Sequence record: OZ035791.1 | Source: Kagunavirus LF7074P3 | Reading direction: 5' to 3' (one strand) | DNA length: 40,766 bases | Shown: positions 3,899-38,742 of the stretch, one piece after another | How positions within the stretch are numbered: position 1 is the first letter of the stretch | How the letters are laid out: each line of letters starts with the position of its first letter | The notes under the pieces: generated by a model | What the model was told of the DNA's origin: nothing | The model's database searches: none | What the model saw: the letters and a program-made list of their open reading frames with translations, nothing else | Position numbers and translations under genes: made by a program

Positions 3899-4359
3899 TG
3901 ATGGGCTTTTTCAAAGTAACTGACGTACCGTCTCGTCGCGTAGTCCAGTACGCCCGCGTGTCTGGCTCTGGCGAGAACGTGGTGTTTATTGAAGACGAAA
4001 GTGTACTCGGAACACCAGTGGACGATATGCCGTTTGCGGACAAGACCGGTATTGCGCTGCCAGCGGCAGGTATGCTTTATGAGATTCAGTACCTGGCGGA
4101 TGCTGGTGATGTGTATTTCTCCGTACAACCGCAGGACGCTGAACTGGCAGACGGCAGCGCAAATATCGCTGTCGAAGTTAAGGCGGGCAAAGCACCATAT
4201 GCGCTGACCTGGTACAAAGACGGGAAGGAAGTGGTAAACGCCCCGGAAGAGGCTCTGTCTCTGACGGTTAACGCAGTTGGTGAATACTTCGTTAAAGTCA
4301 CTGATGCCGATGGTATAGAGGCCGTAAGTAAAGCAGCGAAGGTTACTAAGCCAGAATAA
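3898..4359 (+). CDS. structural protein with Ig-like C-terminal domain (putative head decoration)
   Basis: 153-aa ORF; C-terminal beta-rich segment ...PYALTWYKDGKEVVN...EYFVKVTDADGIE resembles Ig-like fold; followed by strong terminator. Confidence 0.45.
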   Translation: MMGFFKVTDVPSRRVVQYARVSGSGENVVFIEDESVLGTPVDDMPFADKTGIALPAAGMLYEIQYLADAGDVYFSVQPQDAELADGSANIAVEVKAGKAPYALTWYKDGKEVVNAPEEALSLTVNAVGEYFVKVTDADGIEAVSKAAKVTKPE

Positions 4360-4363
4360 ACTG

Positions 4364-4385
4364 AAGCCCCGAAAGGGGCTTTTTA
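4364..4385 (+). terminator. rho-independent terminator
   Basis: AGCCCC-GAAA-GGGGCT hairpin + TTTTT immediately after 3898..4359. Confidence 0.8.
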
Positions 4386-4448
4386 GTGCCTGTGATTATT
4401 CCAGTTATTCCACTCAATTGTAAATGTTGGAATAAACTATTCGAATAG

Positions 4449-4477
4449 TTGACTTTTCACCAAAAATGTGCTAAGCT
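4449..4477 (+). promoter_or_regulatory. sigma70-like promoter (TTGACT-N17-TAAGCT with TGn extended -10)
   Basis: TTGACT 4449-4454, 17-nt spacer, TGcTAAGCT; abutted upstream by perfect palindrome CTATTCGAATAG (4437-4448). Confidence 0.5.
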
Positions 4478-4654
4478 CCACCTGAGCTTGTGAAGTATGA
4501 ACAAGCGACCGCGGCGCGGGCAGGTAACGGAGCGGGACGTAAGTCCTGAGTGTAGTTACGCTGACGCGTTCGGAAGGGCCATACTCTATTGCTTGTGTAA
4601 AAAGTAACTGGTTTACTGAGATTACGCCGTTTCTATGTTTAAATGATAAGGACT

Positions 4655-4681
4655 AGCGCCCCGCTTTAAGGCGGGGCTTTA
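4655..4681 (+). terminator. weak terminator / attenuator hairpin
   Basis: GCCCCGC-TTTAAG-GCGGGGC hairpin followed by only TTT; lies 20 nt before Rz start. Confidence 0.45.
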
Positions 4682-4701
4682 CTTATCGAGAAAGGGGAAA
4701 C

Positions 4702-5088
4702 ATGAATCTTAAAGCAACTGTCGTAGCGGGAGCATGTTTCATCATCCTGGCTTACGCACACGGCATCTACCAGTATCGCAGCGGCTGGAACGGAGGCCGG
4801 GCGAATCTCGTTTCGCAGCAACAGCAGAAAGCACAGGCTGAGTTAGCTAAGAAAACACAACGGCAGCGGCAGGATGAATCGAAGGCCGCCGCCGCTGATA
4901 ACGAAGGCAAGACGAAATCAGAGGTAATCACCCGTGAAGTCGTTAAGTACATTAAAACGCCTGGCCGCAGCGTGTGCACTTTTGACCCTGAGCGCGTGCA
5001 GCTCAAGTCCCGCGCCGTCGCAAACGCCAATTCCATCCCCGGATACGACGATGATGCAGCCGCCGTGCAAACTGGCACTGCCAAGTAA
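4702..5088 (+). CDS. Rz: Rz-like inner-membrane spanin (i-spanin)
   Basis: 128-aa ORF: N-terminal hydrophobic TMD (VVAGACFIILAYA), charged coiled-coil-like periplasmic domain; contains overlapping lipoprotein ORF in +1 frame; RBS AAAGGGG. Confidence 0.75.
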   Translation: MNLKATVVAGACFIILAYAHGIYQYRSGWNGGRANLVSQQQQKAQAELAKKTQRQRQDESKAAAADNEGKTKSEVITREVVKYIKTPGRSVCTFDPERVQLKSRAVANANSIPGYDDDAAAVQTGTAK

Positions 5089-9400: not shown

Positions 9401-10569
9401 ATATGGCTACAACTCCTTTTAAGGGCGCGAATACCGCGCAATTCTATGTGGCGGAAACTACCCCGGGCGTAACACCAAGTAACCCGGTATGGTCACCATT
9501 GCGCAACACAGGTGGCGTTCCAGCGGTAACCCGCGATGCGCTGACTTCCAACGAACTCGACGGCAGCCGTGAAACTACATCCATTCGCACCGGTAACAAG
9601 CAGGTTAGCGGGGAGTATGCCATCGAACTTAGCTCACGTAGCCAGGATGACTTCCTTGCGGGGGCGATGACTTCTACGTGGCAAGCTGGGGTAGAGATTA
9701 CGGGCGCCGAAATTACGGTCGCCCCCGCGGGTAAAACATTCACCCGCGCTGCCGGTAGCTTCATTACTGACGGTGTAGAAGTTGGTGACCTGATCGCGTT
9801 CACCGACTTAACCGGCGACAACGCAAAACCGTTTATCGTGACCGCGGTTTCTGCTCTTGTAGTAACAGGCGCGGGCATTCAGCACACGCTGACAGCAGAG
9901 ACAGTAACCACTGACGCAAAAACTGGCGACAAACTGGAAACCGGTAACGCATGTAAGACGTTCTCCATCCTGACGTGGTTCAAAGGCCAGTGCGGCAACC
10001 CTGACGCATACATGCTGACCAAAGGCGTGGAAATCTCCGGTTTCACCATTGAACAGGCCGTAAACGCGATGGTGACAGGCAGCTTCCCGTTCATCGGTCT
10101 AAGTCAGGAAATTCTTACCACGCCGCCAGCAGGTTCCGACTTCTCTCAGGTCACATTCACCGATGAGCCGTTCTCTTCTGTGGATGTGTCTGTGTTCGAC
10201 GGTTCTACACCGTTGCGTTGCGACACACTTACCATCACCAACGACAACGGCGCTTCCGCACAGTTTGAACTAGGAAACAGTAGCGTTGCGTTCGTGGAAC
10301 GTGGTCGCGCGGCTAACACCTTCTCCATCTCCGGTAAGCTGTACGACATGGCGATGATTCAGAAGTTTATCAACGAGCAACAGGTGGAGATCAACTCTAT
10401 TCTGGCGGGGGTAAACGGGGCTATGTCTTTCAGCCTGAAACGTGCAGAACTCACGGCAGTTACGCCAGAGATTGGTGGACCTGAGTCGATCACTCAGTCT
10501 ATTGAAGGGCAGGCTACTGGCAACCAGTACCAGTCGTCTATTGTTATCCAGCGTATCACCTACGCATAA
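9397..10569 (+). CDS. major tail protein (positional call)
   Basis: 390-aa ORF, last gene before strong terminator. Confidence 0.6.
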   Translation: MNMATTPFKGANTAQFYVAETTPGVTPSNPVWSPLRNTGGVPAVTRDALTSNELDGSRETTSIRTGNKQVSGEYAIELSSRSQDDFLAGAMTSTWQAGVEITGAEITVAPAGKTFTRAAGSFITDGVEVGDLIAFTDLTGDNAKPFIVTAVSALVVTGAGIQHTLTAETVTTDAKTGDKLETGNACKTFSILTWFKGQCGNPDAYMLTKGVEISGFTIEQAVNAMVTGSFPFIGLSQEILTTPPAGSDFSQVTFTDEPFSSVDVSVFDGSTPLRCDTLTITNDNGASAQFELGNSSVAFVERGRAANTFSISGKLYDMAMIQKFINEQQVEINSILAGVNGAMSFSLKRAELTAVTPEIGGPESITQSIEGQATGNQYQSSIVIQRITYA

Positions 10570-10574
10570 AACTA

Positions 10575-10597
10575 AGGCCCCGAAAGGGGCCTTTTTC
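10575..10597. terminator. bidirectional rho-independent terminator
   Basis: AGGCCCC-GAAA-GGGGCCT hairpin + TTTTT; sits between convergent genes (9397..10569 + and 10598..11152 -). Confidence 0.8.
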
Positions 10598-13030: not shown

Positions 13031-13059
13031 ATAGTACCCTATTATATTGGGGTGTGCAA
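13031..13059 (-). promoter_or_regulatory. sigma70-like promoter TTGCAC-N17-TACTAT driving the minus-strand island
   Basis: Minus-strand reading cTTGCACaccccaatATAATAGGGTACTATTCAC; 32/34 identical to promoter at 34757-34790. Confidence 0.6.
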
Positions 13060-23085: not shown

Positions 23086-23111
23086 AAAAGGCCCCTTACG
23101 GGGCCTTTCTT
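23086..23111. terminator. bidirectional rho-independent terminator
   Basis: AGGCCCC-TTAC-GGGGCCT hairpin with A-run upstream and T-rich run downstream, between convergent modules. Confidence 0.8.
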
Positions 23112-25220: not shown

Positions 25221-25505
25221 TTAACTATAATAGCTCGCTATTAGGTCGTCAACCTGTTTAAACGAACCAACGACAAAAACATTCGCACCACGTTTACGCA
25301 TCCGCTCGTGCTCACGTAACTGGTGTGGGTCTGGCTTCGTGTTTTCGTCTTTCTTAACCTCGACGAACAAGACGATGCCGCCGGGTAGAATTACCAGCAG
25401 ATCGGGAGCGCCGGAGCGCCCCTCATAGGAAAGTTTACGAACGAGGCCGCCGATAGCCTCGAATCGCTCTTTTGCGTATTTCTGGATGCGCCCCTCTTTA
25501 GTCAT
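25221..25505 (-). CDS. VRR-NUC domain nuclease (PD-(D/E)XK)
   Basis: 94 aa; ...GAPDLLVILPGGIVLFVEVKK... matches PD..(D/E)xK core of VRR-NUC family. Confidence 0.65.
   Translation of the reverse strand: MTKEGRIQKYAKERFEAIGGLVRKLSYEGRSGAPDLLVILPGGIVLFVEVKKDENTKPDPHQLREHERMRKRGANVFVVGSFKQVDDLIASYYS
25224..25252 (-). promoter_or_regulatory. sigma70-like promoter TTGACG-N17-TATAGT (minus strand) with ATAG-N4-CTATTAG dyad in spacer
   Basis: Minus-strand gTTGACGacctaatagcgagctatTATAGTt; lies inside 3' end of VRR-NUC ORF. Confidence 0.6.
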
Positions 25506-28123: not shown

Positions 28124-28147
28124 TAAAAAGGCCCAATGAAGGGCCTT
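28124..28147 (-). terminator. partial terminator/attenuator between SSB-like gene and polymerase
   Basis: Minus-strand AGGCCC-TTCATT-GGGCCT hairpin followed by TTTTA. Confidence 0.4.
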
Positions 28148-28166
28148 AGTTAAATTGATTCAGATA

Positions 28167-28847: not shown

Positions 28848-28876
28848 ACTATAATAGCTAACTATTCAGGTGTCAA
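28848..28876 (-). promoter_or_regulatory. sigma70-like promoter TTGACA-N17-TATAGT (minus strand) with ATAG-N4-CTATTCA dyad
   Basis: Minus-strand gTTGACAcctgaatagttagctatTATAGT; 55 nt upstream of SSB-like gene start. Confidence 0.7.
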
Positions 28877-31138: not shown

Positions 31139-31168
31139 ACTATAATAGCGAACTATTCATGATGTCAA
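31139..31168 (-). promoter_or_regulatory. sigma70-like promoter TTGACA-N18-TATAGT (minus strand) with ATAG-N4-CTATTCA dyad
   Basis: Minus-strand aTTGACAtcatgaatagttcgctattATAGT. Confidence 0.65.
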
Positions 31169-31173
31169 TGGGC

Positions 31174-31204
31174 TTTTCTAAAATAATTAATATGGTACTA
31201 TTCA
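31174..31204 (+). promoter_or_regulatory. candidate rightward promoter/operator for cro-like gene
   Basis: ATAT-ggta-CTATTCA dyad (31190-31204) with TACTAT -10-like hexamer; -35 poorly defined. Confidence 0.3.
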
Positions 31205-33798: not shown

Positions 33799-33838
33799 TG
33801 TATAATCCTTGTGCTTACTTTGATGATTTGTGCTTCGG

Positions 33839-33869
33839 CCCCGACGTTCTAGCGTTGGGGTTTCTTTTT
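33839..33869 (+). terminator. plus-strand hairpin + T-tract inside leftward operon
   Basis: CCCCGACG-TTCTAG-CGTTGGGG (one G-U) followed by TTTCTTTTT; hairpin weaker on minus strand. Confidence 0.4.
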
Positions 33870-34158
33870 ACCGTTTAGCCAACTCTTCCAGCAAATTTTT
33901 ATACTCTTCAAAATATTCCTCGACCAAATCATCGCCGAAATAGAAGTCGATATACTCGAGATTATCTCTTACGTTAAGCGACGCAGACATGGTGCTTAGT
34001 TGGCGTAAGCTAATTAGCTTCATTTCTGTTTCTACACAGAAAGGCCGGTAGGTATCGAGGTGGCAAGAGATGTTGAAGCATAAAGCGAACTCTCCCGCCA
34101 CGGAGTGAACCATATACACTTCGTTTTCTGCTTTATTGTGGAAAATTACACCTTTCAT
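33868..34158 (-). CDS. hypothetical protein
   Basis: 96-aa ORF, ATGA overlap with upstream HTH gene. Confidence 0.45.
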   Translation of the reverse strand: MKGVIFHNKAENEVYMVHSVAGEFALCFNISCHLDTYRPFCVETEMKLISLRQLSTMSASLNVRDNLEYIDFYFGDDLVEEYFEEYKNLLEELAKR

Positions 34159-34337
34159 TTCACATTCTCCTTAATCCATTCTTCAACTTTATTACGGTCA
34201 AATGTACCTGGTAAACGGCGACCCATAACCTTAATACAACAATCAGGGAATTTACCACTGCGCAACCAGTTATTAATTGTCTGACGTGTTACCCCAATAC
34301 GCTCGGCTACTTCATTCTGGGTCATGTAATGTTGCAT
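34155..34337 (-). CDS. small HTH DNA-binding protein (AlpA/excisionase-like fold)
   Basis: 60 aa from ATG 34337 (RBS AGGAG); ...MTQNEVAERIGVTRQTINNWL...; track ORF to 34451 judged an extension across promoter DNA. Confidence 0.55.
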   Translation of the reverse strand: MQHYMTQNEVAERIGVTRQTINNWLRSGKFPDCCIKVMGRRLPGTFDRNKVEEWIKENVK

Positions 34338-34368
34338 TTTTATATCTCCTGTTTGTTTGGTGAAGCTG

Positions 34369-34397
34369 AGTATAGGATAGCGGGAATGTAAAAGCAA
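34369..34397 (-). promoter_or_regulatory. leftward early promoter TTGCTT-N17-TATACT
   Basis: Minus-strand hexamers with 17-nt spacer, about 25 nt upstream of ATG 34337. Confidence 0.5.
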
Positions 34398-34434
34398 CCA
34401 ATCCCTGCAATATTTAATCTTTACAAAAAAGTTA

Positions 34435-34464
34435 TTGAAAGTTCTTGACACATGTTTGTATAAT
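34435..34464 (+). promoter_or_regulatory. rightward promoter TTGAAA-N18-TATAAT
   Basis: Consensus -10 TATAAT at 34459-34464; divergent from leftward promoter; no ORF for about 350 nt downstream. Confidence 0.5.
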
Positions 34465-34491
34465 GGTTTTGGGACTTGTATATATTACGGA

Positions 34492-34523
34492 GTTGACGAA
34501 CCCTCCCTGAGGGATTCGTCAAC
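34492..34523. repeat. 32-bp near-perfect palindrome GTTGACGAAcCCTCcctGAGGGaTTCGTCAAC
   Basis: 14-bp arms with one bulge; read directly. Confidence 0.8.
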
Positions 34524-34663
34524 CCCTCCCAGACAGCTGAGATGCTTGTTTTAGGGTTTAAGGATAAGTGTATCTAAATCTCATTTAAAGAAGTAACCCA
34601 CTGAAATATCTACTGTTTCTTAATGTGCCGTAGATTCGCAACCGTAAAAATGTAACGATTATT

Positions 34664-34691
34664 GGGCAGGCTTAAGGCCTGCCCTTTAGTT
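34664..34691 (+). terminator. rho-independent terminator
   Basis: GGGCAGGC-TTAAG-GCCTGCCC hairpin followed by TTTAGTT. Confidence 0.6.
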
Positions 34692-34756
34692 ACCAAGTAA
34701 TAAGAATAAAGGCACAACCTTCCCCGAAGAATCGCAACGGCAGCGTAACTATTCTC

Positions 34757-34785
34757 TTGCACACCCCAACATAATAGGATACTAT
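34757..34785 (+). promoter_or_regulatory. sigma70-like promoter TTGCAC-N17-TACTAT with ATAG-N4-CTATTCA dyad
   Basis: cTTGCACaccccaacATAATAGGATACTATTCAC; near-identical copy on minus strand at 13027-13060. Confidence 0.65.
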
Positions 34786-34819
34786 TCACTTATCGGAACG
34801 AGACAGAGGAGTTGGGGTT

Positions 34820-35005
34820 ATGTTTAAGAAGGGTCAGTTGGTGAGAACCAGACACCATGGCAAAGGTGTAATTAAGCACGTTTCGCAGAGAGTTGCAGAT
34901 AGGTATCTTCTTACCAATCCGTATTGGGATTTTGATATGTATTTCCAGGGACGCGAAATAGTAGAGCTCATCGGCAACAATTTTAAATTCAAAGGGGCGA
35001 AGTGA
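34820..35005 (+). CDS. hypothetical small protein
   Basis: 61-aa ORF, RBS GAGGAG. Confidence 0.5.
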   Translation: MFKKGQLVRTRHHGKGVIKHVSQRVADRYLLTNPYWDFDMYFQGREIVELIGNNFKFKGAK

Positions 35006-35190
35006 TGGAAGAATTAATTTACGACGTATACGTCGACGGGGTCATAACAGAGACGACAAGTAATAAAGATTACGCAATAAAGCGGTATGTGTATTATGCC
35101 GCAGTGGTAGGAAGGATGGTAGAAGTGCGGGAGCAAACGGCATCGAATCATGATGCTCGTGCCGACGACTCTGAGGGAGGTTGCCGTTAA
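35005..35190 (+). CDS. hypothetical small protein
   Basis: ATG 35005 overlapping previous stop; RBS AGGGG. Confidence 0.45.
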   Translation: MEELIYDVYVDGVITETTSNKDYAIKRYVYYAAVVGRMVEVREQTASNHDARADDSEGGCR

Positions 35191-35345
35191 TGCGAATCCG
35201 TATAACTGACCGCAGGCTTATAGATTTCGGTATCTCGGTAGGTGATGTTTTTCTGGCGTTCAGCAGCAACCATTATGGTTTTATGATTGAGTACAAAGGG
35301 TCGTTATTGTTCGTGTATCGGGATGAATGTGAGGTTCTGGTATGA
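35190..35345 (+). CDS. hypothetical small protein (51 aa)
   Basis: TAATG overlap, RBS GAGGGAGG; not in ORF track. Confidence 0.4.
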   Translation: MRIRITDRRLIDFGISVGDVFLAFSSNHYGFMIEYKGSLLFVYRDECEVLV

Positions 35346-35485
35346 GAGAAGCATTTGAACGGTGGGCTGTGGTCGAGGGTCTGCCGGTTAACAAGGGTTC
35401 AAAGAAAGAGTACCTGAACGTTAAGACCCGTCTCGCGTGGCGGGCGTTGAAAGCTGGTGTGTTGTCTGTTGCGAATCCGAGGTGA
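35342..35485 (+). CDS. hypothetical small protein (47 aa)
   Basis: ATGA overlap with upstream ORF; not in ORF track. Confidence 0.35.
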   Translation: MREAFERWAVVEGLPVNKGSKKEYLNVKTRLAWRALKAGVLSVANPR

Positions 35486-35488
35486 GAT

Positions 35489-35689
35489 ATGAGCGAGTGG
35501 ATTAAGTGTAGTGAGATGCTGCCAGGTAATGGGTATACGGATAAAGAGTTCCTGGTGTATGAAACGTTAAATAACGCAGTTCAGCACGATTATTACATAG
35601 TTCCTGATGACGGGAGAAAGCCTTTCTGGAATCACTACGATAAGTACGTGACGCACTGGATGCCGTTACCCGAGCCGCCAGAAGTGTGA
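35489..35689 (+). CDS. hypothetical protein (DUF551-like C-terminus)
   Basis: 66 aa ending ...VTHWMPLPEPPEV, reminiscent of DUF551 phage proteins (recall-based). Confidence 0.45.
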   Translation: MSEWIKCSEMLPGNGYTDKEFLVYETLNNAVQHDYYIVPDDGRKPFWNHYDKYVTHWMPLPEPPEV

Positions 35690-35822
35690 TGTTCAATAGT
35701 TTGGGATCTTACTGAGTGACTTACGCTGCTACACAGCAGCGTACAACTTTAACTTAGTGTCGTCAAAGGCGACACTTTCATCAAACGCAACAATCGAAGC
35801 GACTATTGCAGGAGATGCAACA

Positions 35823-35996
35823 ATGATTACTAAAGAACAGGCTGAACGACTAATCACGTTAATCGACACGATGATTGACGTAAAAACCGATTTAGCAACG
35901 GCAACAGAGGAATCCGCTACCTGGTCGCTTGAAGAAAGAGAAGCAGAAGCGGAAAGGGAGTTACTGGCGTTCATCGACTCTATAACACACCAATAA
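35823..35996 (+). CDS. hypothetical small protein
   Basis: ATG 35823 with GGAG 8 nt upstream; in frame with track ORF 35757..35996. Confidence 0.4.
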   Translation: MITKEQAERLITLIDTMIDVKTDLATATEESATWSLEEREAEAERELLAFIDSITHQ

Positions 35997-36003
35997 AATT
36001 TAC

Positions 36004-36032
36004 TTGCACACTAAGATAGAATAGGCTACTAT
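36004..36032 (+). promoter_or_regulatory. sigma70-like promoter TTGCAC-N17-TACTAT with ATAG-N4-CTATTCA dyad
   Basis: aCTTGCACactaagatagAATAGGCTACTATTCA, 32 nt upstream of gene at 36064. Confidence 0.6.
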
Positions 36033-36063
36033 TCATTTACACAAACGAGAGGGGAGACAGAAT

Positions 36064-36612
36064 ATGAAAGATTATAGCGAAGTAACTTTAGGTGAGTTGC
36101 AGGACGAGTACGAAGATATGCTCTACCCGTTCATCTGCGACGGGGACTACAACGGCGTCTATAACGGGGTGAGCGAAGACCTGGCGCATGAGGTGCAGAT
36201 TAAGGAGTTGCGGGAAGACAACATTAAGAAATCTGAGCACATATCGCACCTAACAGGGCAAGTTAAGGAGTTGCGTCTGGCATTGGCCAAGGCTACTGGT
36301 GACGTGGAGGCATACAAACTTATCCGCAAAGGTGCGTACGGTTCGGAGCAATCTGGTTGCCGAAAAGAAGATACGCAGGAATGTGACCACAATTGGATTA
36401 TCGCTCCAGGATTGTTTATTGCCGAAGGCCACAAGGACAACGTGCCCGGTAGCCTGTTTTGCTGCGAATGCGGCAAGCGTGAGTGGGACGGACTTGAGTA
36501 TGGGCCAACAGCCTGTACACGGGAGTGCAAACACAGTTTCTATTATGTAATAACAGATGGCTCCGCGCCGTTCGGTACGAAAGTATGTAAAACGTGCGGG
36601 GAATACTTCTGA
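36064..36612 (+). CDS. Cys-rich (zinc-ribbon-like) hypothetical protein
   Basis: 182 aa; N-terminal coiled-coil-like region, C-terminal CxxC...CxxC clusters. Confidence 0.5.
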   Translation: MKDYSEVTLGELQDEYEDMLYPFICDGDYNGVYNGVSEDLAHEVQIKELREDNIKKSEHISHLTGQVKELRLALAKATGDVEAYKLIRKGAYGSEQSGCRKEDTQECDHNWIIAPGLFIAEGHKDNVPGSLFCCECGKREWDGLEYGPTACTRECKHSFYYVITDGSAPFGTKVCKTCGEYF

Positions 36613-36815
36613 TGACCAGCATCTTATTTATCTGGGTGCTGTCCACGGGTCAGATGCATCTGGCGGCATCAGAAACGTTTTACTCGATGGAGGCGTGCCA
36701 GTCAGCGGCACGCGCCGCAGAGAACGCGCACTTCCTGTTTCAGGGTGACAAGCCTAACGATTCAGAGGTACGCGCTATCTGCTCACCTAAACGTATTGGT
36801 AAACAGGAGAAATAA
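36612..36815 (+). CDS. small secreted/membrane-anchored protein
   Basis: 67 aa from ATG 36612 (overlaps upstream stop); N-terminal hydrophobic signal-like segment MTSILFIWVLSTGQMHLAAS. Confidence 0.45.
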   Translation: MTSILFIWVLSTGQMHLAASETFYSMEACQSAARAAENAHFLFQGDKPNDSEVRAICSPKRIGKQEK

Positions 36816-36816
36816 C

Positions 36817-37020
36817 ATGGTACAGAGATATTTATTACAAGGCGGTTTAATTGGGCCGCACGACGCAGGTGATTGGGTTGGCTATGAAGATTACGCAAAA
36901 CTTGAGGCCGCCGTTATCGCCTTACTTATGGATATAAATCGACGCTACCCTGGAGAAGGGTTTAAGTGCCCGTTAATACTTAAACTCGCGGAGATTGTGG
37001 AACATGAGCCTGGCAACTGA
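36817..37020 (+). CDS. hypothetical small protein
   Basis: ATG 36817 with AGGAG upstream; 67 aa. Confidence 0.45.
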   Translation: MVQRYLLQGGLIGPHDAGDWVGYEDYAKLEAAVIALLMDINRRYPGEGFKCPLILKLAEIVEHEPGN

Positions 37021-37297
37021 CATCCTTAAACGCAGCGGCCTTGCGCCGCTGTCGCCGAGAGCGAATACACGAATACACAAGCGCCGCCGTAATGCACTGT
37101 ACCCCGAGATTCAGGCCAGGCGCAAAGCGGTCCGCGCCTGTGGATTCCAGAACGGGAAGGCCGTGAATCTCGGTGAGTTTAAAACGCAGGAACGTGCAGC
37201 TATCGCTAATCGGCTATTTAATTACTGGAAATCGCTGGGGTACGTGGATATTCCGACGAAACCACAGAGACGACAATACATCTGGCGGCATAAATAA
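37004..37297 (+). CDS. AP2-like DNA-binding domain protein (putative)
   Basis: ...GFQNGKAVNLGEFKTQERAAIANRLF... resembles AP2/ERF-type three-strand + helix DNA-binding domains found in phage proteins (recall-based). Confidence 0.4.
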   Translation: MSLATDILKRSGLAPLSPRANTRIHKRRRNALYPEIQARRKAVRACGFQNGKAVNLGEFKTQERAAIANRLFNYWKSLGYVDIPTKPQRRQYIWRHK

Positions 37298-37327
37298 ACC
37301 GTTATTAAGATAATTCCTACCCGTGGT

Positions 37328-37368
37328 ATCCTCCAGTTACTGCATACTTAATACGCACCTGGAGGATT
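37328..37368 (+). promoter_or_regulatory. hairpin sequestering the holin RBS
   Basis: ATCCTCCAG (37328-37336) pairs with CTGGAGGAT (37360-37368), 23-nt loop; 3' arm contains GGAGGA Shine-Dalgarno 6 nt before TTG start at 37373. Confidence 0.5.
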
Positions 37369-37372
37369 CATC

Positions 37373-37681
37373 TTGGATAAATTTACTGAAACAGTGACAG
37401 GCTGGCTTCTCGCCGCCGCGCTCGCCGGAGGGGTCATCGGACTACGACAACATAAGTCCGTTATTTCTGGCCCTATCGACGGATTCTGCTTTATTGCTAC
37501 TGGTTTCGCCTGCGCTGTATTTGGCGCACCTCTCGCGGCTCAATGGTTCGGTATCACGGGCGACCGTGAAATCGCTGGCCTTGGCTTCATCATCGCTATT
37601 CTCTGGATGCCTATCTATTCCCGTCTCTCCAGTATCGTCGCTGGAGAATACATCGCACGTCGAGGAGGCACAGATGAATGA
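37373..37681 (+). CDS. holin (3-TMD, class I-like)
   Basis: 102 aa with three hydrophobic segments and charged C-terminus; TTG start; directly upstream of lysozyme gene. Confidence 0.6.
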   Translation: MDKFTETVTGWLLAAALAGGVIGLRQHKSVISGPIDGFCFIATGFACAVFGAPLAAQWFGITGDREIAGLGFIIAILWMPIYSRLSSIVAGEYIARRGGTDE

Positions 37682-37946
37682 GTTATTCTGGTTCGGCGGT
37701 ATGCTGGCAATCGGCGGCACATCGCTGTTTAATGTATACCATCCGAGCGTGGATGACGGGCTATTTGGTCGGGTGCTCTATATCCTGACTGCTATCGTCT
37801 GCGCTGCCGGATGTATCCACCTGTTACAGGGCAGCATGTCGCCGACGCTGCCTGAGACATTAATCACATTAGTTGCGCTGCGTCAGATTCGTCAGGCGTG
37901 GCTGTCATACGGAGGACATAAGCGTGTCTCGAAACATTTCAGATAA
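37674..37946 (+). CDS. second holin-like 2-TMD membrane protein (holin/antiholin candidate)
   Basis: 90 aa from ATG 37674 with strong RBS AGGAGG; two hydrophobic segments; overlaps both neighbours. Confidence 0.5.
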   Translation: MNELFWFGGMLAIGGTSLFNVYHPSVDDGLFGRVLYILTAIVCAAGCIHLLQGSMSPTLPETLITLVALRQIRQAWLSYGGHKRVSKHFR

Positions 37947-38412
37947 TGGATTGCATTTTACCGCCGCGTTTGAGGGGTTCCGCGGAACTGCGTATCGTGC
38001 TACGCCATCGGAAAAATACTTAACTACAGGCTACGGTCATTACGGGCCGGACGTGGCCCCAGGCAAGACCATCACGCCAGGGCAAGGCCTCCTGTTACTG
38101 AACCGTGATATGGCTAAGGCCGTAGCTGCGGTTGACGCAGCGGCGCACCATTCGCTAACACAGGCGCAGTTTGATGCAGTGTGCGACCTGGTCTATAACG
38201 CGGGGGCCGGCGTTATTTCGGCTACTACCGGTACAGGTAAGGCACTGCGCTCCGGTGATATCGCGACGTTACGGGCTAAACTGGCGCTGTTCATCAACCA
38301 GAACGGCAAACCGTTACTGGGCCTTCGCCGCCGTACCGCCGGTCGCCTGGCGCTGTTTGACGGTAAACCGTGGCAAGAGGCGGAGGCTATCGGGCGCGCG
38401 GTGAAAGGTTGA
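37924..38412 (+). CDS. endolysin (phage lysozyme, GH24-like)
   Basis: ...AFEGFRGTAYRATPSEKYLTTGYGHYG... lysozyme-like catalytic region; GTG 37924 with AGGAGGA upstream. Confidence 0.7.
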   Translation: MSRNISDNGLHFTAAFEGFRGTAYRATPSEKYLTTGYGHYGPDVAPGKTITPGQGLLLLNRDMAKAVAAVDAAAHHSLTQAQFDAVCDLVYNAGAGVISATTGTGKALRSGDIATLRAKLALFINQNGKPLLGLRRRTAGRLALFDGKPWQEAEAIGRAVKG

Positions 38413-38476
38413 CACCCAAGACTAATCCGATGATACTTAAATCACCTCCTGTTCCATCCCTCTGCTCTCCAGTTTT

Positions 38477-38509
38477 ATCCCGGCCCTGACCCAGCCGGGA
38501 TTTTTTTTA
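38477..38509 (+). terminator. strong rho-independent terminator
   Basis: TCCCGGC-loop-GCCGGGA hairpin followed by T8. Confidence 0.85.
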
Positions 38510-38530
38510 TCTATTTTCTGCAATGACTAG

Positions 38531-38559
38531 TTGACTATTATCCTAGACCCTACTATATT
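38531..38559 (+). promoter_or_regulatory. sigma70-like promoter TTGACT-N17-TATATT
   Basis: Hexamers with 17-nt spacer, 34 nt upstream of ATG 38593. Confidence 0.55.
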
Positions 38560-38592
38560 TACTTCATCGACAACGAGAACGGAGTAGAGAAG

Positions 38593-38742
38593 ATGAAAAT
38601 CACAGATACCGAAGCATTCGAAGACGCGCAACTGATGGCGCGCATTGCCGTTAGTCACCGGGGTGGGAGCATTCCCGCGGACTCGTTCTGGTTCGCTGCG
38701 ATGCAGACACTGAAAGCAGCTTATGCAGGAGAGAAGAAATGA
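38593..38742 (+). CDS. hypothetical small protein (49 aa)
   Basis: RBS GGAG; first of nine translationally coupled small ORFs. Confidence 0.4.
   Translation: MKITDTEAFEDAQLMARIAVSHRGGSIPADSFWFAAMQTLKAAYAGEKK

Follow-up and report, generated by a model that had tools for sequence, protein, structure and literature searches.

Phages of the genera Kagunavirus and Jerseyvirus are commonly isolated for use in therapy and biocontrol, yet hundreds of genomes list the block of small genes in front of the lysis cassette as 'hypothetical'. Both genera have been proposed as small chassis for phage engineering (PMC11990801). Here, we describe this block in Kagunavirus LF7074P3 (OZ035791.1), whose complete genome (subfamily Guernseyvirinae; 40,766 nucleotides, ~40.8 kb; hereafter the window) carries ten small open reading frames, ORF1 to ORF10, at positions 34820-37297 of the plus strand. 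A megablast search with positions 34500-37700 as query matched 361 phage records, headed by Kagunavirus LF7074P1 (OZ035758) with 98.7% identity and followed by K1G, K1H, K1ind and other E. coli and Salmonella siphoviruses of the Guernseyvirinae. The same block is found in LF7074P1, K1G, K1ind1, fKuEco01 (KE1_049-059), Bas73 (genes 0056-0067) and Jersey, where gene order, promoters and most of the proteins agree with the window, and in the deposited relatives every one of its genes is labelled 'hypothetical protein'. Differences concern ORF6 and ORF9, which the window possesses yet most relatives lack, as well as the HslV-like peptidase and homing endonuclease inserts of some relatives, which are missing from the window. 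The block has been sequenced before, belongs to a well-sampled subfamily and is an ordinary kind of feature that is better described here; phages of this size usually carry small genes of unknown function ahead of their lysis genes, and specialists will find little surprise here. The new points are a regulon defined by a shared palindrome, an apparent operon link to the lysis genes, a split into conserved and variable genes, the modelled AP2 fold of ORF10 and a modular, hypervariable ORF7. The explanation that accounts best for these data, and that we hold to be rather probable, is that of a pre-lysis block of small genes, which is served by two conserved promoters, belongs to the palindrome regulon and combines conserved with mosaic genes.

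All ten frames are present where the original prediction had placed them, as a tightly coupled series on the plus strand. Each is preceded by a Shine-Dalgarno sequence and each protein matches a PHROG family (E values from 2e-13 to 1e-55), all of these families being of unknown function. In addition, tblastn searches of 38 related loci, from which the presence counts, identities and ratios of nonsynonymous to synonymous substitution rates (dN/dS) of the individual ORFs are taken throughout, recovered homologues of all ten ORFs with dN/dS values of 0.07-0.52. Neighbouring frames overlap by 1, 1, 4, 1 and 17 nucleotides (nt) or are separated by 3 and 1 nt, and larger gaps are limited to two, that is 133 nt 5' of ORF6 and 67 nt 5' of ORF7. 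When start codons were checked, an ATG a few bases away replaced the original start of each of ORF2, ORF3 and ORF9. A GTG start of ORF6 at 35757, which yields 79 amino acids (aa), was rejected as overlong: this frame matches Pfam and PHROG only from residue 23-24 onwards, and the 57-aa ATG form, which has a Shine-Dalgarno sequence, is preferred. Likewise, a 73-aa GTG form of ORF8 would add an Arg residue, but has no Shine-Dalgarno sequence, and the 66-position PHROG profile starts at the ATG. Scans against Pfam and NCBIfam gave no housekeeping family for any of the ten ORFs, in keeping with what had been predicted; the NCBIfam scan returned nothing meaningful for all ten proteins, and seven of them have no Pfam match below E = 0.01. 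The shortness of several ORFs (only 47-61 aa) and these missing Pfam matches could be taken to mean that the frames are in part or as a whole chance open frames and that the promoter motif described below is a chance repeat. We give this reading practically no credence. It is refuted by the PHROG matches of all ten proteins, by the presence of homologues with dN/dS below 1 for every ORF, and by the conservation of the promoter motif, which has just three genomic copies, each of them 5' of a gene and kept in relatives; Shine-Dalgarno sequences and coupled junctions throughout the block also speak against it.

The motif in question, TTGCAC-N17-TACTAT, occurs exactly three times in the 40.8 kb, at 34757 and 36004 on the plus strand and at 13059 on the minus strand. 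The two plus-strand copies, P34757 (34757-34785) and P36004 (36004-36032), had been proposed as promoters of the block, and this assignment is confirmed: almost every Kagunavirus locus that covers these sites has them at the same positions, although the flanking coding sequence is mosaic. Both lie in a 53-nt repeat. All three copies share a longer consensus, which extends over the spacer, the -10 element and an AACGAGA-containing leader and ends 28-35 nt 5' of the start codon. With reference to sigma-70 promoters, P34757 and P36004 match in four of six positions in TTGCAC and in four of six in TACTAT, have N17 spacing and lie 28-35 nt upstream of starts; a generic promoter scan missed them because it demands 9 of 12 matches. 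The third copy (13031-13059, minus strand) is located 5' of leftward exonuclease/phosphatase genes, whose products include metallophosphoesterase (E = 1.9e-4, below the Pfam cut-off) and PNKP-type phosphatase domains.

The -10 elements of all three copies are overlapped by the palindrome AATAG-N4-CTATT, which we regard as a candidate operator (AATAG-GATA-CTATT at 34773-34786 in P34757 and AATAG-GCTA-CTATT at 36020-36033 in P36004). Three further exact copies are situated in the spacers of strong leftward promoters on the minus strand: at 25229-25242 in TTGACG-17-TATAGT upstream of DNA-metabolism genes, at 28853-28866 in TTGACA-17-TATAGT upstream of the genes for a ssDNA-annealing protein and DNA polymerase, and at 31144-31157 in TTGACA-18-TATAGT upstream of an exonuclease operon. 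The leader of the latter promoter, AACGAGAGGAG, is identical to the leader of ORF7. Thus counted, there are six exact palindromes (13030, 25229, 28853, 31144, 34773 and 36020), all within -35/-10 pairs and 25-75 nt upstream of start codons. When up to one mismatch is allowed, the genome contains 12 copies as compared to 1.0 +/- 1.0 expected, a number that was reached in 0 of 100 shuffles. In Bas73, the palindrome is present at the same sites and stands ahead of genes labelled as exonuclease, ssDNA-annealing protein, methyltransferase/helicase and DNA repair exonuclease, and in Jerseyvirus loci the palindrome, TACTAT and the AACGAGA leader stand before homologous genes, albeit with different -35 elements. 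The palindrome is absent from the divergent promoters of the control region (34435 rightward; a probable TTGCTT-17-TATACT leftward). As the block and the replication/recombination promoters have the palindrome in common, the block appears to belong to the same pre-late regulon, and it would be controlled by one dimeric regulator acting at AATAG-N4-CTATT. We noticed no gene for a phage RNA polymerase, either in the genome or in the annotation of a relative, and for this reason assume that the host sigma-70 RNA polymerase is used; it would initiate at P34757 to transcribe ORF1-ORF6 and at P36004 to transcribe ORF7-ORF10 along with the lysis genes. Two of the copies with one mismatch may be mentioned separately: the copy at 31189 is near the 31144 site on the leftward strand, and the copy at 38526 overlaps the -35 element of a post-endolysin promoter (TTGACT-17-TATATT), which has an AACGAGA leader, too.

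Downstream of ORF10, the plus strand carries the genes for holin II (37373-37681, TTG start) and holin I (37674-37946), both named according to the annotation of relatives, and for the endolysin (37924-38412; Pfam Phage_lysozyme, 5.8e-26), followed by an intrinsic terminator at 38477-38508, which consists of an 8-bp G+C-rich stem and a U8 run. Except for a weak stem of 6 bp within the gene for holin I, no terminator was detected between 36004 and 38412. Since a terminator is absent between ORF10 and the holins, ORF7-ORF10 appear as the promoter-proximal genes of a holin-holin-endolysin operon; the P36004 unit would comprise ORF7-ORF10, the two holin genes and the endolysin gene and end at 38477-38508. 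Judging from the sequence, nothing would stop transcripts from P34757 from reading through into the lysis operon. The spacer between ORF10 and the holin II gene (37298-37372, plus strand, 75 nt) has neither a terminator nor a promoter and is almost invariant in 14 sequence variants from related loci. This invariance holds irrespective of whether the upstream gene encodes the AP2 protein or the HslV-like peptidase; in Bas73 and Jersey, a gene for an HslV-family peptidase sits between the AP2 gene and the holins (4357-4797 of locus L002 and 4078-4512 of locus L040, respectively). Within the spacer, 37329-37337 can pair with 37359-37367 to form a hairpin that covers the holin Shine-Dalgarno sequence GGAGGA (-20 kcal/mol, z = -2.35), for which covariation provides no support because the spacer sequence is invariant. 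Together with the TTG start of holin II, this hairpin suggests that lysis timing may be set post-transcriptionally. The spacer also contains TAGGA-N4-TCCTA, which was considered as a late-gene operator and rejected: there are three genomic matches at up to one mismatch, and the other two are unlinked to promoters.

In the gene order that the window shares with its annotated relatives, the structural genes point rightward and the replication genes (~23.5-33.7 kb) leftward, and a divergent control region (~34.3-34.8 kb) is followed on its 3' side by the ten-ORF block, two holins, the endolysin, small genes and terminase. At this control region, the divergent gene at 34155-34337 (minus strand) encodes a 60-aa helix-turn-helix (HTH) protein of the HTH_17/Xis-MerR type (Pfam HTH_17, 4.7e-8), which is 81-98% identical across Kagunavirus and Jerseyvirus with a dN/dS of 0.066. 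In the one Cornellvirus locus examined (7 kb), neither a match to the HTH protein nor the palindrome was found, though homologues of ORF8 and ORF10 are there. The HTH_17 protein is the best candidate for the factor that would bind AATAG-N4-CTATT, as a repressor or as an activator; ORF10 is a less suitable candidate because the Cornellvirus locus has an ORF10 homologue without the palindrome. The HTH gene is followed downstream by a 96-aa gene, which a terminator-like hairpin (33837-33862) separates from the helicase-primase gene, and the HTH gene may therefore belong to a short immediate-early leftward unit. In the sole time course available for a Kagunavirus, RNA-seq of vB_Eco_K1B4 grouped 57 genes into 4 early, 42 middle and 11 late genes, with replication genes and lysozyme in the middle class and the counterpart of the HTH gene as the only named one of the four early genes (PMC12645636). 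Literature on Guernseyvirinae promoters and on Jerseyvirinae/Jerseyvirus RNA-seq provided nothing useful for temporal class. The block had been called early, which agrees with its sigma-70-type promoters and with the palindrome that it has in common with replication/recombination promoters as long as 'early' is understood as 'not late-structural'; beyond this loose sense the term does not stand.

Several RNA structures were observed around the block. On the plus strand at 34435-34690, a near-consensus sigma-70 promoter (TTGAAA-18-TATAAT, 11 of 12 matches) faces ~215 nt without an ORF, in which a very stable hairpin (34489-34526; -28.8 kcal/mol, z = -4.65) and a terminator-like hairpin followed by TTTAGTT (34664-34684; z = -3.64) are located. 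This stretch could represent a leader or a small RNA ahead of P34757; it has no Rfam match, and most relatives diverge here. The 133-nt gap between ORF5 and ORF6 contains two G+C-rich hairpins without U-runs (35722-35776), which may be RNA processing or stability elements, and folds as a whole with z = -2.5. An Rfam scan of 34000-38600 gave only two sub-threshold matches to small-RNA models (38453-38508), both on the post-endolysin terminator hairpin. Elsewhere in the genome, the hairpin GCCCCGAAAGGGGC plus a T-run recurs at boundaries of gene blocks (2789-2815, 4358-4384 and 10569-10595; inverted at 23086-23107 and 28125-28151), probably as a family of (bidirectional) terminators.

The ten genes do not form a uniform accessory array. 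ORF4, ORF8 and ORF10 are well conserved and under strong purifying selection (dN/dS of 0.19, 0.09 and 0.07, respectively), and ORF8 and ORF10 occur in ~480 Guernseyvirinae genomes; these three constrained genes would probably have phage-intrinsic roles. ORF4 (35342-35485; 47 aa, basic; phrog_15836, E = 7e-33) was recovered from 33 of the 38 loci with 89% identity, exclusively from Kagunavirus loci and without a match among the Jerseyvirus loci examined. The remaining seven genes are variable. ORF1 (34820-35005; 61 aa, basic, isoelectric point (pI) 10.2; phrog_12538) evolves fast, being present in 28 of 38 loci with a median identity of 43% and a dN/dS of 0.52, and ORF2 (35005-35190; 61 aa, acidic; phrog_30617, E = 2.8e-44) is only partial in many relatives. 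ORF3 (35190-35345; 51 aa; phrog_30395, E = 4e-40), ORF6 (35823-35996; 57 aa, very acidic, pI 4.2) and ORF9 (36817-37020; 67 aa; phrog_23083 and phrog_23941) are accessory genes that were found in 18, 10 and 15 loci, respectively. ORF5 (35489-35689; 66 aa) is present in 28 loci, mostly as variants at 30-45% identity. It matches DUF551 over the full length of the profile (PF04448; E = 6.3e-12, 46.6 bits versus a cut-off of 22), which is a portable domain of unknown function (PMC10834534); a sequence search of the PDB with ORF5 alone gave no match. ORF6 is assigned to DUF7438 (PF24219; E = 5e-11, 43.2 bits versus a cut-off of 25), the match extending from residue 24 of the 79-aa frame. The mosaic genes ORF1, 2, 3, 5, 6 and 9 and the hypervariable ORF7 would be plausible host-interaction genes.

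ORF8 (36612-36815; 67 aa; phrog_3766) was identified in 474 phage records across the subfamily. Its Kagunavirus and Jerseyvirus versions are 90% identical, with proportions of synonymous and nonsynonymous differences (pS and pN) of 0.55 and 0.05, as compared to merely 22-40% identity for the holins of the same pair. The N-terminus, MTSILF, has no Lys or Arg preceding the hydrophobic core ILFIWVL, which reaches a 9-residue hydropathy of 2.1-2.4; a small-residue site, A-A-S, precedes E21. Over 19 residues, the hydropathy amounts to 1.25 versus 1.9-2.1 for the holins. Both the hydrophobic segment and the cysteines C29 and C57 are invariant in three genera. The putative designation of ORF8 as a secreted peptide agrees with the hydrophobic N-terminus and the A-A-S site, but the n-region lacks positive charge and the segment does not vary across genera, which together would be unusual for a cleaved signal peptide. 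Such invariance appears more in keeping with a functional membrane segment than with a generic leader. The sequence clearly points to the membrane or the periplasm as the destination of ORF8, which would be a 67-aa membrane-targeted or exported protein. A role as a LysM-like peptidoglycan binder was considered and rejected: the match to a plant LysM receptor kinase had an E value of 0.15, and hhalign against the LysM domain of MltD aligned nothing. A Pfam search with six ORF8 homologues at E <= 10 returned nothing, and ORF8 did not resemble any known antiholin, spanin or Sp/Imm-type protein.

For ORF10 (37004-37297; 97 aa, very basic, pI 11.5), profile and structure searches returned AP2 domains, bearing out its proposed AP2-like nature. 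The family is represented in 485 phage records, mostly of Salmonella and Escherichia phages, with hosts that are all enterobacteria or relatives, and it is nearly always 'hypothetical' among the matches listed. Close homologues were confined to Kagunavirus-type contigs, and a PDB search with their profile gave nothing. An exhaustive profile search collected 70 relatives, which have in common the pattern P-G-V...W-x-A...G-x-x-V-x-LG-x-F-x-T-x-x-R-A and an almost invariant N-terminal MSLATDILK. The resulting profile reaches a eukaryote-like multi-AP2 protein at E = 1.4e-10 (whose own Pfam AP2 score is 6.9e-33), and in the PDB the family profile matched only AP2/ERF proteins, that is WRI1 (4e-5), TEM1 (5e-3) and AtERF1 (0.3). 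The AlphaFold2 model of ORF10 has a predicted local distance difference test (pLDDT) score of 79 overall and above 90 in the core, with strands at residues 36-38, 43-49 and 52-59 and a helix at 62-77. Foldseek placed AtERF1 (1gcc) and the AP2 domain of TEM1 at the top of its PDB matches with probabilities of 0.98-0.99, at E values of only 0.085-0.12, and retrieved dozens of phage AP2/ERF and HNH-AP2 proteins from BFVD with a probability of 1.00. In line with this model, ORF10 has an AP2 fold and would act as a stand-alone DNA binder.

ORF7 (36064-36612; 182 aa) combines a coiled coil with two Cys/His modules and belongs to a family of 781 homologues; the long contigs among their sources measure about 40-45 kb, as do the genomes of these phages. 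It contains 10 Cys residues and two C-x-H-x-[WF]...C-x-x-C modules at residues 107-136 and 155-178. In the family alignment, the module takes the form C-x-H-x-[WF], 11-24 residues and C-x-x-C, in tandem, and an invariant SGCRKED-TQEC linker is present; residues C107, H109, C133, C136, C155, H157 and C175 are at least 90% conserved. Module number varies: among 120 homologues, 118 carry one to four modules, namely 15 proteins with one, 80 with two, 20 with three and 3 with four, and 2 have none. With a median identity of 43% and a dN/dS of 0.39 among neighbours that are ~94% identical, ORF7 is a hotspot of diversity. DNA alignment revealed that ORF7 of the window is an in-frame fusion: in relatives, a small variable ORF that immediately follows P36004 is separate from the zinc-module gene, whose start it overlaps, and in the window a deletion of ~110 nt joins this ORF to about codon 26 of that gene (window 36064-36180 aligned with 2883-3100 of the relative locus L001). 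The fusion is a natural variant, since it was also encountered in a cluster of 15 member sequences in the database. The description of ORF7 as a Cys-rich zinc-ribbon protein fits the conserved Cys/His pattern, on which the putative fold and zinc binding rest; no match in Pfam or the PDB covers the modules. A relationship to the T7 RecBCD inhibitor gp5.9 was rejected: the similarity concerns only the coiled coils and is not significant (E = 0.07), so that it serves as a lead and not as evidence.

These data have to be weighed against other views of the block. ORF7-ORF10 could be an accessory part of a lysis/late-control module and not early genes at all, with ORF10 switching on or timing late or lysis transcription from the position of lambda Q, and with a membrane-associated or periplasmic ORF8 that serves in lysis timing or superinfection exclusion. 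We consider this possible, albeit doubtful. Kagunavirus, Jerseyvirus and Cornellvirus all preserve the order ORF8, AP2 gene, optional HslV-like peptidase gene, holin, holin, endolysin. The conservation of ORF8 and ORF10 equals that of the holins and the endolysin, and ORF8 has its hydrophobic N-terminus and two invariant Cys residues; moreover, no terminator precedes the holin gene, and the near-invariant spacer, the hairpin over the holin Shine-Dalgarno sequence and the TTG start of holin II would all suit such a module. However, neither a late-gene-specific promoter nor a binding motif was found, TAGGA-N4-TCCTA having failed in this respect, ORF10 has the modelled fold of AP2 and not of Q, the spacer hairpin lacks covariation and has a z of only -2.35, and ORF8 is unlike known antiholins, spanins and Sp/Imm-type proteins, with the LysM lead being rejected as well. 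A more speculative version, in which ORF7, ORF8 and ORF10 form an unrecognized control module of the Guernseyvirinae, the AP2 protein being a late/lysis switch, ORF8 tuning the holins or blocking superinfection and ORF7 binding a host factor in an arms race, is in our view distinctly improbable; if true, a regulatory role of a free phage AP2 domain would to our knowledge be demonstrated for the first time.

Alternatively, the ten genes may be an early host-takeover/anti-defence array, whose small products inhibit host functions or immunity right after infection. This is suggested by the size of the proteins and their lack of a recognizable function, by the sigma-70-type promoters and by the mosaic or fast-evolving character of seven out of ten genes, which would be expected in an arms race. 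The diversity hotspot at ORF7 (43% identity between neighbours of 94%, zero to four modules), the very acidic character of ORF2, ORF6 and the ORF7 N-terminus, and the weak, non-significant resemblance of the ORF7 coiled coil to T7 gp5.9 point in the same direction. Against it, ORF4, ORF8 and ORF10 are strongly constrained, the latter two being subfamily-wide, and ORF7-ORF10 are predicted to be co-transcribed with the lysis genes. Further, PADLOC, which contains models of defence systems only, gave just matches of E = 0.003-0.01, which fall on stretches of coiled coil or acidic residues. None of the matches to known inhibitors was significant, and the takeover reading has no positive support. 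In BASEL phenotyping, Kagunavirus phages proved highly sensitive to restriction-modification and variably sensitive to Old, which also weighs against this view (PMC11990801). Takeover by the array as a whole is unlikely in our judgement, and the conserved genes that adjoin the lysis cassette rather have the appearance of regulators intrinsic to the phage or of accessories to lysis.

Our preferred explanation, a pre-lysis block under two conserved promoters of the palindrome regulon, has to contend with several points that weigh against it. The palindrome arms are 5 bp long and one arm overlaps the -10 element, and part of the conservation could thus be conservation of the promoter. Small HTH proteins of the Xis type are often monomeric DNA benders, and the proposed link between the HTH protein and the palindrome draws on co-conservation in two genera and joint absence from one 7-kb Cornellvirus locus. 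Transcript ends and timing are deduced here from sequence, and the vB_Eco_K1B4 series is coarse and does not state the class of the block's genes (PMC12645636). A conserved gene need not be phage-intrinsic, a conserved anti-defence gene being possible as well. With regard to the individual proteins, the Pfam AP2 model misses ORF10 of the window at E <= 1, Kagunavirus copies of ORF10 have a shortened first hairpin and a Val in place of the beta-sheet Trp that relatives keep, the AlphaFold2 model of ORF7 (36 sequences) is poor, with a pLDDT of 52 and short strands at the modules, and zinc binding by ORF7 is predicted from a residue pattern.

For the use of these phages, the split within the block implies that ORF1-3, 5, 6 and 9 are probably deletable or replaceable and that ORF4, ORF8 and ORF10 are probably to be kept. 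In addition, the analysis provides leads in the form of an AATAG-N4-CTATT regulon at no fewer than six promoters with a named candidate regulator, a free AP2-fold protein encoded beside holin genes and a diversity hotspot, ORF7, made of zinc-ribbon-like modules.

How does the locus compare with known systems? In the nin-Q-S-R-Rz region of lambda, small genes of unknown function are likewise followed by the gene of a DNA-binding regulator that adjoins the holin and endolysin genes. As in lambdoid phages, more small genes come after the lysis genes (DUF2737 in the annotation of relatives; NinH reported for phage K1B4), and then terminase. DUF551, the domain of ORF5, occurs in lambdoid and cryptic prophage proteins (PMC10834534). 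In contrast to lambda, ORF10 has the predicted fold of AP2 and not that of Q, a promoter-terminator pair resembling pR'/qut was not found before the holin gene, and the phage of the window is virulent; hence, the resemblance to lambda is one of position only. ORF10 itself resembles the AP2/ERF family (PF00847), which includes plant ERF, WRI1 and TEM1 as well as phage HNH homing endonucleases, in having three strands plus a helix and the sequence G-x-x-V-x-LG-x-F-x-T-x-x-x-A-A, yet it stands alone, without a nuclease or integrase domain, has the conserved MSLATDILK and a basic linker and, in Kagunavirus, a shortened first hairpin without the conserved Trp, which places it below Pfam detection. 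Finally, the shared palindrome is reminiscent of early promoters controlled by Cro/CI-type operators, since it overlaps or abuts the -10 elements of several sigma-70-type promoters of early, replication-type genes and a small HTH protein is encoded at the divergent control region. In Cro/CI-type systems the operators are arranged in tandem, whereas here binding is predicted at a single 14-bp site per promoter, the sites are scattered over at least six promoters around the genome, and the candidate regulator is an HTH_17 protein of the Xis/MerR type.

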